In this document: one piece after another, positions 4,991-13,266 of the stretch
Numbering within the stretch: the stretch's first letter is position 1
How the letters are laid out: each line of letters begins with the position of its first letter
Source of the DNA: a virus
Lineage: Duplodnaviria; Heunggongvirae; Uroviricota; Caudoviricetes
Length of the DNA stretch: 15,563 nucleotides
IMG/VR virus record: IMGVR_UViG_2718217897_000008
Strand: one strand, 5' to 3'
Notes under the pieces: generated by a model
The model's database searches: none
Seen by the model: only the letters and a program-made list of their open reading frames with translations
What the model was told of the DNA's origin: nothing
Made by a program: the position numbers and the translations under genes

Positions 4991-6073
4991 ATGAAAAAAT
5001 TAACAGTGGCAATTTCTGCTGTAGCTGCATCAGTACTGATGGCGATGTCTGCTCAGGCAGCTGAAATTTATAATAAAGACAGTAACAAGCTGGATCTGTA
5101 CGGGAAAGTTAATGCCAAGCACTACTTTTCCTCTAACGATGCAGATGATGGTGATACTACTTATGCCCGTCTTGGCTTCAAAGGTGAAACCCAAATCAAC
5201 GATCAACTGACTGGTTTCGGTCAGTGGGAATATGAATTCAAAGGCAACCGCGCTGAATCTCAAGGTTCCTCCAAAGACAAAACCCGTCTTGCATTTGCAG
5301 GCCTGAAATTCGGTGACTACGGCTCAATCGATTACGGCCGTAACTACGGTGTAACATACGACATCGGTGCGTGGACTGACGTTCTGCCAGAATTCGGTGG
5401 CGATACCTGGACCCAAACAGATGTGTTCATGACTGGTCGCACCACTGGTGTTGCAACCTATCGTAACAACGACTTCTTTGGTCTGGTCGATGGCCTGAAC
5501 TTTGCTGCTCAGTATCAGGGTAAAAATGACCGCACTGACGTAACTGAAGCCAATGGTGATGGTTTCGGTTTCTCCACTACTTATGAGTATGAAGGATTCG
5601 GCGTGGGTGCAACCTATGCTAAATCAGATCGCACTGACGGTCAGGTCGCCTATGGTAAGAGCAAATTCAATGCCTCCGGCAAAAATGCGGAAGTATGGGC
5701 TGCAGGCCTGAAATATGATGCGAACAATATCTATCTGGCTACCACATATTCTGAAACTCAGAATATGACCGTTTTTGGTAATAACCATATTGCAAACAAA
5801 GCACAAAACTTTGAAGCAGTAGCACAATATCAGTTTGACTTCGGTCTGCGACCATCTGTTGCTTACCTTCAGTCAAAAGGTAAAGACCTTGGTGTTCATG
5901 GTGACCGAGACTTAGTCAAGTATGTCGATGTCGGTGCTACTTACTACTTTAATAAAAACATGTCCACTTTTGTTGATTACAAAATCAACTTAATTGACGA
6001 TAGTAAGTTTACCAAAACAGCTGGTATTGATACCGACGACATCGTCGCTGTAGGTCTGGTGTATCAGTTCTAA
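4991..6073 (+). CDS. nmpC: general porin of the OmpC/OmpF/PhoE family (NmpC/OmpD-like), 360 aa, apparently intact
   Basis: Signal peptide [23 protein letters not shown] then AEIYNKD...; porin family blocks ([26 protein letters not shown], ends ...VAVGLVYQF with C-terminal Phe); no interruption. Confidence 0.85.
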
Positions 6074-8136: not shown

Positions 8137-8234
8137 GCTTCACCTCCGCAGAGGTCAAACGCTAGATGCAAAGAATTGCAGGTGCATTTCTGCATCTGTG
8201 AAGGGAGAAGAGAGTTTGGATTGTATGTGCGCAT
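8133..8234 (-). CDS. ylcH: small protein, 33 aa (YlcH-like)
   Basis: Hand translation [33 protein letters not shown]; its stop overlaps the ybcN GTG start (GTGA). Confidence 0.5.
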
Positions 8235-8257
8235 AAACGTCCCCGTTTAGCGCAGAA

Positions 8258-8286
8258 GTCACCGGAGTTGTTCAGGCTCCGGTGAC
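8258..8286 (-). terminator. 10-bp perfect-stem hairpin between ybcM and ylcH (possible tR2-like nin-region terminator or attenuator; weak U-tract)
   Basis: GTCACCGGAG - 9 nt - CTCCGGTGAC, followed on the minus strand by UUCUGCGCU. Confidence 0.35.
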
Positions 8287-8350
8287 ATAATTATGCCGTG
8301 TTGATTTCCCAAAATCAAAATCGATAGAATTGCTCCTTCTTAAAACACTT

Positions 8351-9148
8351 TTACTCTCTGGAAGCTTTTCTTATCTCTCTTGGTGTTATATTAAAACGAT
8401 TATGAAATCTTTCAGTAAAACGAGAAGGACACTTATAACCATTTTCTCTGGCAATCTCGCTTATAGGTTTTACCGTCGTTTGTATAGCAGACAACGCATT
8501 ATTTAACCTCACATCGTCCAGTATACTTTGGAAACTTACCCCCTCGCTTGCTAGACGGCGATGTAATGTAGAAACAGAAATGTAGAGATATCGAGCAACC
8601 TTGTTTGCTGTCCATTTTGTGCCGGGTTCGGATAGCAGCAGGTTATAACAACGACTTATCAATGATTGTTTACTATATGATAAAAGTAAATGATTAACAT
8701 GATTCACTCCTAACGAAAGTAGAACGCCCATTGCTAAGTGCTCCTGAATTTTAGTTGAGAAGCCTCGGGAAACAGATGTTTTTAGTTGCTCCCAACAATA
8801 TATTAACTCAGGATTCTGAGGTAAAAAGAAACTTGTTTTGTTACGTATTTGATCAGTTACCGTATAAAGTTTTTGGAAACTCTCAATTAAATCAATGGGT
8901 AAGTAAAGCATTTCTGCAAGATAAAGCCCTGCTTCAGGATAATTCTCAATATAAAATTCATAACCACAAGGAAATAATATTATTTGATTATTATCAACAG
9001 TTAAAGTATGCGTCTCCCAATTGATAACTTTCTTTCCCTGACGGATACGACACAAAGCTGGCATAAGAGGCTTAACCCTATGAATCTCATGATGTTTATG
9101 CATCCGTATTTCTTCGATCTTTAAGTTAGTCTTACCTCTTGCCAGCAT
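8351..9148 (-). CDS. ybcM: AraC/XylS-family transcriptional regulator, 265 aa
   Basis: C-terminal AraC-type HTH ([42 protein letters not shown]...[27 protein letters not shown]); AT-rich codon usage; directly downstream of ybcL. Confidence 0.8.
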
Positions 9149-9157
9149 ACTCTCACC

Positions 9158-9709
9158 CTACTTTATCTCATAAACTGGTGTTATCTCAGCGGTTGCGATT
9201 TTATTAGCATTAAGCATATAACCAACTAACGCTCCGCTGGAGTTAGAATCTACAGGAATCTTTTCAGTTTTTAGAGCCCATACTTTAAACTGGTAATGAT
9301 GTGGTTTATCTCCTTTAGGAGGACATGCGCCACCAAACCCAGCATAGCCAAAATCATTTCGGCCTTGAACAGCACCAGTCGGCAGTTTTGTTCCATCACG
9401 TCTCCCTGCATCAACGGGCAAATATGTTACTGTTGCTGGAATATTAACAACAGTCCAATGCCACCAACCACTGCCTGTAGGTGCATCTGGATCATATACA
9501 GTTACGGCAAAGCTTTTGGTACCTTCAGGAACACCAGACCAGGTTAATGAGGGCGATGTATTACCACCTTCACACCCAAATCCAGAAAAGACATGAGACG
9601 TTGTAAGTTGCTCTCCTGTTTTTATTTCATTACTAGTGACCTGAAATGCTGCAGCCTGCGCAGAAAATGTTATGAATGCCAATACAGTTGAAACGATAAG
9701 TGTTTTCAT
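9158..9709 (-). CDS. ybcL: secreted PEBP/RKIP-family (UPF0098) protein, 183 aa
   Basis: Signal peptide MKTLIVSTVLAFITFSAQAAA; PEBP-like motifs (YDPDAPTGSGWWHW, HHYQFKVWAL). Confidence 0.8.
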   Translation of the reverse strand: MKTLIVSTVLAFITFSAQAAAFQVTSNEIKTGEQLTTSHVFSGFGCEGGNTSPSLTWSGVPEGTKSFAVTVYDPDAPTGSGWWHWTVVNIPATVTYLPVDAGRRDGTKLPTGAVQGRNDFGYAGFGGACPPKGDKPHHYQFKVWALKTEKIPVDSNSSGALVGYMLNANKIATAEITPVYEIK

Positions 9710-9925
9710 AAAAACCTCTTTGTTATGACCTATCGTTATTTTATTTGATATTCCTTTATCTCATTATGCATAAAGGCGCAATGTTCATGCAAAAGCAATC
9801 ACAATTGTACCCCCAACCCAATTATTTGCCACAATATACACAAAGCACATTGATACTATCTAAAAACTCTGCTTTATTATTAGTAATACCTACGAAAGTC
9901 GGTGTTATTTTTTAACCTACCATTC

Positions 9926-9975
9926 AAAATACGTGACATACACCATTTTGCTCATAATAATTTGTCACGTATTTT
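9926..9975. repeat. 50-bp dyad element: perfect 13-bp inverted repeat AAAATACGTGACA / TGTCACGTATTTT with a 24-bp spacer
   Basis: Direct read: 9926-9938 is the exact reverse complement of 9963-9975; lies in the ybcK-ybcL intergenic region. Confidence 0.6.
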
Positions 9976-10173
9976 CAGTATTTGAATCTGCGACCAAGAG
10001 TTCTCACCTAACAAATGATTAAGATTGTATAGCTCATTTACTACCCCAATACAGCCGTACAAAACTCGCTTGTGGGAGCAAACAAAGTAATTACCCATTA
10101 AGTTTCGTCAAAGATAATTAATTCTGTCTTGCACTTTATCACCATAGCATAACTTAAAATCCGAGATCATTAT

Positions 10174-11700
10174 TTAGAAATAAATCTCACCATCAACCAT
10201 ATATTTGAGAGCACTTATCGCCTGCTGGGCGGATATTACTTTCATTAAAGGATAGTGTTTAAAAACAATGCCATTCATAAAATAGATATCACAGGTTTTA
10301 TTATCCGTATTAATTATGATTTTTTCGAATGTTTTATAGGCAAGTGTACGGCATAACTCTCGTCCATTTTTACTGGTTAAGTCAATAGCATAAAAATCAC
10401 TGAATGAATTTACACCTTTACTCTTCAAAGTTTTCAATGATACCGAAGCCCTTCGTAATTCCTTATCTAATAGTCTTATTTTCTCTGCTATAGCGGTAAC
10501 TTCAGGCGCGACAGACAATGCAACGATTAAATTATTAATTTTCATCTGAAGCTCAATAATTTTTAACTCTAAAGTTTCATTAGCATCTTTCTTGTTTTCA
10601 ACTGGTTGAATTTTGCTACAATTAAAAAGCAATTCATTAATGATATTATAATCAACCAAATCTCTTTTTATTGATGGCCTGTCACATCGATGTAATCTTC
10701 TCATCGGACAAACATAATAGCCATGCAAACTTCCAGATACCGCATGAACAATCATGGTATTACCACAAGCCTCACACTTCATAACTGTTCGAAGTAGATT
10801 TATTAGCATAGGATTCTTGCTACTATTGCTAATACCAAAAGGTGCCAACCGAATTTCCTGTACAGCGTAAAACAAATCATCTGATATGACTCTGGGATAA
10901 TAGCCAGCGATTTCACTTATCCCTTTCCCTCTTGCACGATATGAAGGTACGCATATACCTATCAGAGCTTTATTCGCTAATAATTTTTCAATTACAGAAG
11001 GTCCCCATGCACTTTCTTTTCCTGAGAAATTCTTTACAGCATGATCATTTAAATACTTGGCTATTGCATTCAATGAGCGCCTTTCCATCCTGAGTTTAAA
11101 AATTAGCTCAATAGTTTTCACCCTGTCGGGGTCTGGAACAAAAGCCGTTCTTTTGTCATCTAAGGAGAGCCATCTCGGACAAGACGCCGTCATAATCGTA
11201 CCTGATTCCAGTGCATCCTGCCGTTTTTTCTTCCATGATAATTTAACCCGACTTGACTTTATCTCGCTTTCTTCATTTGCCCTTTGTGCTATAAGTATGG
11301 CTTTTATTAATGAATATGGCTCATTCAAAGAGTCAATATTATAGACTGTATTGTCGCAAAGAGTTATAACATCAATACCGTGATTCAAAATCAATTTCAG
11401 ACGTTCAATCGCTTCACCGACTTTTTCTCTTGAAAGTCTGTCCAGACTTTCAACTAACAATGTAGTTCCTGGCAATATATAACCATGCTCTATAGCATCT
11501 AAAAATTCCGAAAAAGCTCCTGATTGTGCATGCTTTCCTTTGAATGCACTTAATCCTAAATCTTCATATGTTATGGTATCAAGATAATAATCACTATTTA
11601 CCTTTAATCATTCAGCAATAAGTCTTCTCTGTCGGTTTAATGAGTCGCCAGACATCTGACCTGGTGATGAAAATCGCATATATGCTATGGCTTTTTTCAT
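10174..11700 (-). pseudogene. ybcK: large serine recombinase (resolvase domain, recombinase domain, zinc ribbon) interrupted by an in-frame TGA at codon 31
   Basis: ATG at 11700 gives MKKAIAYMRFSSPGQMSGDSLNRQRRLIAE (catalytic-serine motif) then TGA at 11608-11610; the same frame continues LKVNSDYY...ILPGTTLLVESLDRLSRE... into the 433-aa ORF, total 508 codons. The track ORF begins at a TTG. Confidence 0.75.
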
Positions 11701-11884
11701 GGTGACACCTGCTAACGTATGCTTTTATAAACCTTAGTGGTGGGATATAATTTTTGTTTAATTTTTATTTAAAAAGACAATTAAGGTCACATTATCTTGA
11801 ATATACAACAATAATCGTATTGCAATTTTCTTACGCCATAATCTTGAAAGCACAAAAGAATACATAAAAAATAAAGACATTAAC

Positions 11885-11924
11885 AAAAAGCATAAAACGA
11901 GGCTCATATAAATATAAGAGCCTC
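11885..11924 (-). terminator. rho-independent terminator downstream of emrE
   Basis: GAGGCTC - 12 nt - GAGCCTC hairpin followed on the minus strand by GUUUUAUGCUUUUU, about 30 nt after the emrE stop. Confidence 0.55.
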
Positions 11925-11954
11925 CATATTTTAGTCGTTTAGAAACAAATTATT

Positions 11955-12287
11955 TTAATGTGGTGTGCTTCGTGACAATAAATTAATAACCAACACACCG
12001 GCACAAATCAACATCATGCCTATAATGGCTGGCAGGTCCAGCCGTTGGCCGAAAAATCCCCATGACAGTAAGCTAATCAGGACAATACCGACTCCTGACC
12101 AGATACCATAAGCAATCCCTGTAGGAATATAAGCCAGCGTCTGAGCTAATAACCAGAATGATGCACAATAACAAATAATTGTACCAACAGATGGCCATAA
12201 CCGTGTAAAACCTTCTGAAAACTTCATTAAGGTTGTACCAATGACCTCTGCAAGTATTGCACCACCAAGATAAATATAAGGGTTCAT
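11955..12287 (-). CDS. emrE: EmrE small multidrug resistance (SMR) efflux transporter, 110 aa
   Basis: Translation MNPYIYLGGAILAEVIGTTLMKFSEGFTRLWPSVGTIICYCASFWLLAQTLAYIPTGIAYGIWSGVGIVLISLLSWGFFGQRLDLPAIIGMMLICAGVLVINLLSRSTPH, recognised as EmrE (four TM helices, conserved membrane Glu in TM1); the ORF-track start at 12341 is an upstream extension. Confidence 0.9.
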   Translation of the reverse strand: MNPYIYLGGAILAEVIGTTLMKFSEGFTRLWPSVGTIICYCASFWLLAQTLAYIPTGIAYGIWSGVGIVLISLLSWGFFGQRLDLPAIIGMMLICAGVLVINLLSRSTPH

Positions 12288-12302
12288 AGCATATTCTTTC
12301 CT

Positions 12303-12337
12303 GTTCAAACTGGAGAGAATTGTACTACAGTTTGAAC
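12303..12337 (-). promoter_or_regulatory. 10-bp perfect inverted repeat in the ren-emrE intergenic region (terminator for ren or leader structure for emrE)
   Basis: GTTCAAACTG - 15 nt - CAGTTTGAAC, 16 nt upstream of the emrE start codon on the transcribed strand. Confidence 0.4.
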
Positions 12338-12354
12338 TCAACTCACCTGTTTCA

Positions 12355-12657
12355 TCATTGTGTTCCCATTGATGTTCTTTTATATACCCTCAGTACCCGT
12401 TTCATCGCGGCACTCTGGCGACACTCCTTAAAAATCAGATTCGTGCTCACCTTTCCTTCCCGTTCTTCTCTGGTAGCGAACCGGTAATACACCGTTCGCC
12501 AGACCTTACCATCAACGACCAGGATTCCTGCCCGCGCCATTTTAGCCGCAGCCTGATTTATGCTGGTTACGGTTGCACCTGTTACCGCGGCAACGTCCTG
12601 TGCACAGAAGCTCTTATGCGTCCCCAGGTAATGAATAATTGCCTCTTTGCCCGTCAT
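12355..12657 (-). CDS. renD: Ren (Rex-exclusion resistance protein) homolog, 100 aa
   Basis: Translation MTGKEAIIHYLGTHKSFCAQDVAAVTGATVTSINQAAAKMARAGILVVDGKVWRTVYYRFATREEREGK... closely matches lambda Ren as recalled; ATGA overlap with the upstream P fragment. Confidence 0.8.
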   Translation of the reverse strand: MTGKEAIIHYLGTHKSFCAQDVAAVTGATVTSINQAAAKMARAGILVVDGKVWRTVYYRFATREEREGKVSTNLIFKECRQSAAMKRVLRVYKRTSMGTQ

Positions 12658-12890
12658 ACACTTGATCCTTTCAGTCCGAACTTAGCTTTGATTTCTGCGA
12701 TCTTCGCCAGAGCCTGTGCACGATTTAGAGGTCTACCGCCCATGACAGGAAGTTGTTTTACTGGTTCAGGTATCGCCTCACCACGGTTAATTCGCGCGGT
12801 CATACAGGACAGTTCATCGGCAGCCTTGCGCCGTAATTCCGCGTCAGTCAGCGCATTGGCCCGCATGTTCTGGTACAAGTTGGTAACCAA
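12654..12890 (-). pseudogene. C-terminal fragment of replication protein P (helicase loader), about 80 codons
   Basis: Translation ...VTNLYQNMRANALTDAELRRKAADEL..TARINRGEAIPEPVKQLPVMGGRPLNRAQALAKIAEIKAKFGLKG..V matches the lambda P C-terminus; homology runs a few codons further upstream (AYW) to a stop at 12918-12920; no O gene or N-terminal P present. Confidence 0.8.
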
Positions 12891-12900
12891 CCAGTAAGCA

Positions 12901-13266
12901 ATGGGATATGCCTCTGGTTATGTCTGGTTGAATCCACCATACAGCAATATTTCCCCTTTTGTGAAAAAGGCAGCCACTGAAAACAAATTCAGCAGTGTGG
13001 GATGTGTAATGTTATTACCTGCTGACACATCTGTCGGATGGTTTCATGAAGCGATACAAACCGCCAGTGAGGTCAGATTCATCACGGCAGGACGACTGGC
13101 ATTTATTAACCCACTCACCGGGAAACACGTCAGTGGAAATAATAAAGGCTCGATGCTCATTATCTGGCACCCATACCCCCGTACACACTGCCACTTTACG
13201 ACCGTTGATCGTGGAGAGTTGATGGCGTTCGGCTCAAGGATTCTTGCCCGTCGGGAGGCTGCATGA
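12901..13266 (+). pseudogene. 5'-truncated phage Dam-family N6-adenine DNA methyltransferase fragment, 121 codons
   Basis: Begins essentially at the catalytic NPPY motif (GYVWLNPPYS) followed by a ...MLLPADTSVGWFHE...VRFITGRLAF pattern typical of phage Dam methylases; the N-terminal SAM-binding half is missing and the ORF abuts the P fragment head-to-head. Confidence 0.6.

Follow-up and report, generated by a model that had tools for sequence, protein, structure and literature searches.

A TGA codon at position 31 of ybcK, a large serine recombinase gene in a defective lambdoid prophage of Escherichia coli

The stretch of DNA analyzed here (15,563 nucleotides, referred to as the window) carries on its minus strand the large serine recombinase gene ybcK, whose reading frame is interrupted near its 5′ end by a TGA codon. 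The locus raises the question of whether this stop is real and what followed from it: whether the gene was lost through a single base change, whether the protein is still made in some form, and whether the loss had any bearing on the neighboring genes. The reading that we put at a probability of roughly 0.9 is that the change (W31*) is a loss-of-function mutation that arose recently, is restricted to a small E. coli lineage and was probably neutral. The positions of the features are listed in Table 1.

The interrupted reading frame and its gene family

The frame starts with an ATG (11700-11698) and ends with a TAA (10176-10174) on the minus strand, giving 508 sense codons and the terminator. 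Its sole internal stop is the TGA (11610-11608) at codon 31, 20 codons past the catalytic Ser11 in the motif Y-M-R-F-S-S-P-G-Q. The initial annotation gave the coordinates, the position of the stop in the frame and the length of 508 codons, and all of these are correct. Two of the 509 codons in the coding frame are stops (the internal TGA and the terminal TAA), as compared to 54-56 stops in the other two frames of the same region and an average of 40, and never fewer than 26, in 500 shuffled versions of the ybcK sequence, which has a G+C content of 35.5%. The frame is therefore truly coding.

The stop-corrected protein matches three Pfam families, PF00239 (Resolvase, 5.5e-19), PF07508 (Recombinase, 2.3e-14) and PF13408 (Zn_ribbon_recom, 7.9e-08), and it matches a PHROG 'integrase' family at 4e-120. 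A domain match of YbcK to B. subtilis CisA has been published (PMC6637259). Residues R9, S11, Q15, D87, R88 and R91 are invariant among 26 homologues, as are the zinc-ribbon cysteines C309, C312, C331 and C339 in the homologue alignment. Neither the full-length protein nor the catalytic domain found a meaningful match in sequence searches of all PDB chains, and as a result the catalytic residues are assigned from the family alignment. The three domains and the invariant catalytic residues bear out the assignment of the gene, made at the outset, to the large serine recombinases.

The conceptual, stop-corrected ORF contains the N-terminal resolvase-type catalytic domain as well as the C-terminal recombinase domain and four-Cys zinc β-ribbon of this family, but the frame of the window copy is broken by the TGA at codon 31. 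The window copy is thus a pseudogene of a large serine recombinase family member, by descent, and not a functional member.

The gene is found by megablast in 1,423 of 5,426 complete E. coli genomes, annotated as "recombinase family protein", and nearly all of the roughly 1,400 positive genomes have a single copy. A search of the literature turned up no study of how YbcK functions as a recombinase. A reading of the locus as a defense system was dropped, as the PADLOC models gave no match for YbcK, YlcJ, YbcL or YbcM.

Table 1. Positions of the features at and around ybcK. Coordinates are those of the window unless another locus is named.
Feature	Position	Strand	Remarks
ybcK pseudogene, large serine recombinase frame interrupted once	10174..11700	-	508 codons; Resolvase, Recombinase, Zn-ribbon
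Premature TGA, codon 31 of ybcK	11608..11610	-	Ancestral TGG, Trp31
Mutated base	11608		T on plus strand, A on coding strand
Residual 30-codon ORF, M1-E30	11611..11700	-	Keeps R9 and the Ser11 nucleophile, nothing more of the enzyme
Codon 11 (TCA), predicted catalytic serine	11668..11670	-	From family alignment
Codons 87-91, D-R-L-S-R catalytic motif	11428..11442	-	D87, R88 and R91 invariant; now 3′ of the stop
TTG codon 76, first in-frame start-type codon past the stop	11473..11475	-	Without Shine-Dalgarno
ATG codon 170, first in-frame ATG past the stop	11191..11193	-	Product would have recombinase, zinc-ribbon and coiled-coil parts only
AT-rich accessory block, emrE-ylcJ-ybcK-ybcL-ybcM	8351..12287	-	From G+C profile and annotation
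emrE	11955-12287	-	Accessory block
ylcJ	11758-11907	-	Accessory block, upstream of ybcK
ybcL	9158-9709	-	Accessory block
ybcM	8351-9148	-	Accessory block
ren; ylcH/ybcN	12355-12657; 7681-8234		Genes flanking the accessory block
YbcK-type recombinase loci compared	L013, 2698-4224; L020 (phage Perceval), 11038-12406

Occurrence and ancestry of the TGA allele

The TGA allele differs from the common allele by a single base, the type of difference that a consensus error could give, and in that case the true base would be G and ybcK would be intact. A 61-nt probe centered on the TGA has an exact match in 8 of 1,189 genomes, the other 1,181 differing from it by at least one base. The carriers are E100341 (Gambia), AST19 and AST205 (Japan), and five laboratory derivatives of EC0026B (UK), and the eight records thus represent four independent isolates from separate projects in three countries. 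The same TGA is present in the assemblies of all four isolates and in five re-sequenced derivatives of one of them. Moreover, the carriers share nested derived substitutions (see below), as expected of real inheritance, and the site lies outside any homopolymer run (GAATGATTA). The change is real and extends beyond one assembly; with TGA in four independently sequenced isolates, an assembly error is effectively ruled out, and the sequencing error for which the initial annotation had left room finds no place in the independent assemblies.

In the three records inspected (E100341, AST19 and EC0026B), RefSeq/PGAP lists ybcK as a pseudogene with the remark 'internal stop', and the pseudogene state is therefore already known, being recorded in public annotation. 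The ybcK allele of E100341 is identical to that of the window, and this isolate has IS3 and IS679 insertions that are absent from the window. AST19 differs from the window at 3 of 13,783 aligned bases, including an extra G322A change in ybcK.

The ancestral codon is TGG. Over the 161 nt around the TGA, K-12 DH10B and the B derivative B95.deltaA differ from the window only in having TGG as codon 31, and in both strains YbcK is an intact protein of 508 residues. A change of T to C on the plus strand at 11608 does therefore restore the Trp codon, as had been proposed. A coding-sequence alignment was made of 14 ybcK sequences, including 11 that do not carry the TGA (K-12, O157 EDL933, six chromosomal alleles down to 95.6% identity, and phages Perceval, PhiR68_2 and Turner), and codon 31 is TGG in all 11. 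The window allele is the intact allele of phage PhiR68_2 with the G93A change only. At the protein level, 25 homologues from a large protein database were aligned. Trp31 is found in all 20 of those from Enterobacterales, down to about 42% identity, and a Tyr in the other five, which are more distant and of Alphaproteobacteria type. Position 31 therefore holds a conserved aromatic residue. The comparison with ybcK orthologues suggested earlier thus places the stop at a codon that is conserved as sense, and no orthologue sampled outside the carriers has a stop there.

With the catalytic residues and the four zinc-ribbon cysteines invariant and an aromatic residue conserved at position 31, the ancestral YbcK looks like a competent enzyme. 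The intact gene is under strong purifying selection (dN/dS of about 0.07), as the Nei-Gojobori values are 0.06-0.09 for K-12 against divergent intact alleles, with dS up to 0.18, and 0.05-0.07 for three other distant pairs.

Two later substitutions are found in the TGA lineage, both 3′ of the stop. G322A (Gly108Ser) is common to AST19 and EC0026B and affects a column that is invariant in the family, and C965G (Ser322Cys) is confined to EC0026B. The two changes are nested and each is nonsynonymous, although these are just two events and carry no statistical weight. They are consistent with one origin of the TGA followed by decay, and are suggestive at most of relaxed constraint. Haplotype identity among the carriers likewise points to a single origin. 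Over the 5.1 kb from emrE to rusA, the window differs from a B strain by three SNPs, one of which is the TGA itself, indicating that the mutation is recent.

The history that we propose has the following steps. A G-to-A change on the coding strand of ybcK would have converted TGG to TGA (Trp31 to stop), once, in a haplotype almost identical to those of E. coli B and phage PhiR68_2, and the TGA would then have been inherited within a small lineage that includes the four sequenced isolates. Translation would end after 30 residues and give no active recombinase. This loss would probably be neutral, with the prophage already defective and ybcK transcriptionally silenced in K-12.

A different lesion was noted in the E. 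coli YbcK variant P0003 (478 residues), which has an in-frame deletion of 30 residues (alignment columns 201-230) at the start of the recombinase domain. It represents a second, independent and probably inactivating lesion of ybcK.

Expression past the stop

The 30-residue peptide retains R9 and S11, and has lost D87, R88 and R91, the dimerization helix, the recombinase domain, the zinc ribbon and the coiled coil. Inactivation of the recombinase by one point mutation, as first suggested, agrees with these observations: one base change turns a conserved TGG into a stop, the full-length enzyme should be lost as a result, and from the sequence the product of the TGA allele would be absent. The initial annotation also raised readthrough of the stop and internal restart as routes to a protein product, and neither is supported by the analysis.

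UGA is the leakiest stop codon of E. coli and is misread by the near-cognate tRNA-Trp, which inserts Trp. As Trp is also the ancestral residue 31, such misreading would give wild-type YbcK; a trace of it is possible in principle, and the TGA allele is then maybe not an absolute null. That the level is high enough to make the allele a hypomorph rather than a null is very unlikely, however. A U as the fourth base is the most efficient context for termination at UGA, and the stop here (GAA-UGA-UUA) is in this strongest context. No Rfam family was found over the whole window at the gathering score, and the sequence 3′ of the TGA is identical to that of the TGG alleles of K-12 and B, leaving no candidate for a downstream recoding element. 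The stop is found in just 8 of the 1,189 genomes, with TGG in the sampled orthologues, and this lack of conservation argues against programmed recoding, either by readthrough or with selenocysteine. In addition, ybcK is poorly transcribed.

An internal restart could give an N-terminally truncated, catalytically dead DNA-binding protein with a function of its own. The frame downstream of the stop, 433 codons in length, still matches the Recombinase and zinc-ribbon domains, and it has an in-frame ATG at codon 170. There is no in-frame ATG or GTG between the stop and this codon, however. The nearer candidates are all TTG codons, for which a Shine-Dalgarno sequence is missing or too near the start codon, and any restart product from codon 76 onwards would be without R9 and S11. 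Promoter-like sites in the region are no more common than in shuffled sequence, and the nonsynonymous changes at the invariant G108 and at S322 fit decay rather than a maintained product. We consider a functional restart product highly improbable, and truncation after 30 residues with loss of the enzyme is the reading that we carry forward.

A consensus scan for promoters and terminators around ybcK gave counts no higher than those in shuffled sequences, and found no minus-strand terminator 3′ of ybcK. The early promoter and the N antitermination system, the normal drivers of the genes of the nin region, are deleted in the window prophage. In K-12, a Rho/NusG-dependent terminator in the ybcK leader keeps ybcK off (PMC4150792), and the DNA of ybcK is a site of polyphosphate-dependent silencing by Hfq (PMC10954037). 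Deletion or overexpression of ybcK is reported to alter sabinene tolerance in BL21(DE3), with no mechanism given (PMC7181518). In view of this reported phenotype, we describe the loss of ybcK as probably neutral and go no further than that.

The published Rho-dependent terminator of ybcK falls somewhere in the leader region around the small upstream gene ylcJ (window 11758-11907). The window and E100341 differ by one base in ylcJ (11861), and the annotations of strains ST648 and 99COLEC give ylcJ a frameshift.

The host prophage, its cargo block and known recombinases

The window is a defective lambdoid prophage of the DLP12 type, adjoining a tRNA-Arg gene. Its gene order starts with intD, a few early-left genes, a truncated methyltransferase gene abutting a truncated P gene, ren, emrE, ylcJ and ybcK, continues with ybcL, ybcM, ybcN, ninE, ybcO, rusA, quuD and a porin gene, and ends with the lysis genes, bor/iss, the terminase small subunit and a tail-tip remnant. 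The prophage has lost N, cI, cro, O, most of P, and its head and tail genes, and is therefore defective and immobile in any case.

Several features of the prophage lie away from ybcK. The truncated DNA adenine methyltransferase gene (12898-13266, plus strand) directly adjoins the truncated P (12654-12899, minus strand), and this joint (window 12654-13266) marks the deletion that took out the exo to O region, with N, cI and cro among the genes lost. Positions 1-1780 of the window do not align colinearly with the prophage of AST19, which is nearly identical otherwise; the two differ in how the terminase small subunit is joined to the tail-tip remnant, implying a different or larger deletion in the strain from which the window derives. 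The porin gene (4991-6073), annotated as ompC, is an intact ORF of 360 codons. We take it to be the counterpart of nmpC of K-12, the K-12 copy presumably being interrupted by an IS element.

The ybcK gene is part of an AT-rich stretch (positions of about 8,200 to 12,350) with a G+C content of 31-44%, as compared to about 50% in the flanks. In the genomes with an intact ybcK that were inspected (K-12, B and phage PhiR68_2), the block likewise lies between ren and ybcN, and complete lambdoid phages that encode a tyrosine integrase and excisionase of their own also carry it. The only repeats within the AT-rich block are short matches in two copies, such as chance alone would give, and none is at the borders; a recombinase-bounded element was therefore rejected as a candidate.

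The stop was initially thought to have perhaps fixed this cargo block in place, and one could suppose that the loss was selected because it immobilized the emrE-ybcK-ybcL-ybcM genes or removed a harmful recombinase activity. Nothing speaks directly for such a selected loss, the nearest point being the stress phenotype reported upon perturbation of ybcK in BL21(DE3). K-12, B and PhiR68_2 all have the block between ren and ybcN and an intact ybcK with it, complete phage genomes that encode their own tyrosine Int and Xis contain it, and no repeats bound it. The prophage of the window was already immobile. Moreover, ybcK is present in about 1,400 complete genomes, in single copy in nearly all of them, and the stop is confined to one small lineage. 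With the same site occupied in the presence of an intact gene, and without bounding repeats, nothing suggests that YbcK mobilizes the block or that its loss fixed the block in place. An adaptive inactivation is thus exceedingly improbable, and a neutral loss is the reading that we retain.

The slot between ren and ybcN (window positions of about 8367-12382; locus L016, 791-4459) is a variable cargo site in lambdoid phages. In PhiR68_2 the block is identical to that of the window; Perceval and 4A7 have emrE-ybcK together with an alpha/beta hydrolase gene, Turner has emrE-ybcK with small ORFs, and PhiR26_1 has a PD-lambda-1 defense gene and Rha. The emrE and ybcK genes travel together, and the genes downstream of ybcK vary among the phages.

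YbcK-type recombinases are located between the replication genes and the antiterminator Q in complete lambdoid phages that encode a tyrosine Int and Xis. In phage Perceval the tyrosine integrase and excisionase genes are at the canonical place, and YbcK is therefore not the integrase of this phage. A Pantoea dispersa homologue (42% identity) has the equivalent place in a lambdoid prophage, with the replication genes on one side and Q on the other (locus L019, 7001-8518), and a Yersinia homologue sits between two prophage remnants. From the purifying selection on the E. coli and coliphage alleles, YbcK looks like a selected accessory recombinase. It may carry out an unrecognized task in phage development other than integration, in which case the W31* lineage would be a natural knock-out; we offer this tentatively, as a possibility rather than the expected outcome.

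By itself, the loss of an uncharacterized prophage recombinase through a single base change in one small E. coli lineage matters little. For annotation, ybcK in this lineage should be called a pseudogene rather than be split into two ORFs, and W31* could be used as a naturally occurring null allele for the function of YbcK. What may be worth more work is that lambdoid phages with an integrase of their own have, in the nin region, a serine recombinase that is conserved and under selection.

The closest known counterpart is YbcK of K-12 (UniProt P77698; RefSeq WP_000709082.1, a DLP12 recombinase family protein), which is the same gene at the same locus, with the same neighbors (emrE, ylcJ, ybcL and ybcM). 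Only 2 of 1,527 bases differ between the two copies, giving W31* and a synonymous change at I249. The K-12 gene is an intact ORF of 508 residues with TGG at codon 31, whereas the window copy has TGA.

The case also resembles other grounded (cryptic) prophages of E. coli, as a point nonsense mutation occurred in a prophage already stripped of genes and was followed by nonsynonymous changes. In comparison to the general decay of such prophages, however, the decay of ybcK is limited to one lineage, and most E. coli genomes keep ybcK intact under purifying selection.

Among the characterized enzymes, the integrases of phiC31, Bxb1 and A118 as well as SpoIVCA/CisA and TnpX have the three-domain plan (Resolvase, Recombinase and zinc β-ribbon) in common with YbcK. 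The R-x-S nucleophile motif, the D-R-x-x-R motif and the four zinc-ribbon cysteines of the large serine recombinases are found in YbcK as well. Unlike the phiC31, Bxb1 and A118 integrases, YbcK is not the integrase of its phage, as the phages that carry it have a tyrosine Int and Xis. In addition, YbcK in the window ends at residue 30, unlike the functional large serine recombinases.
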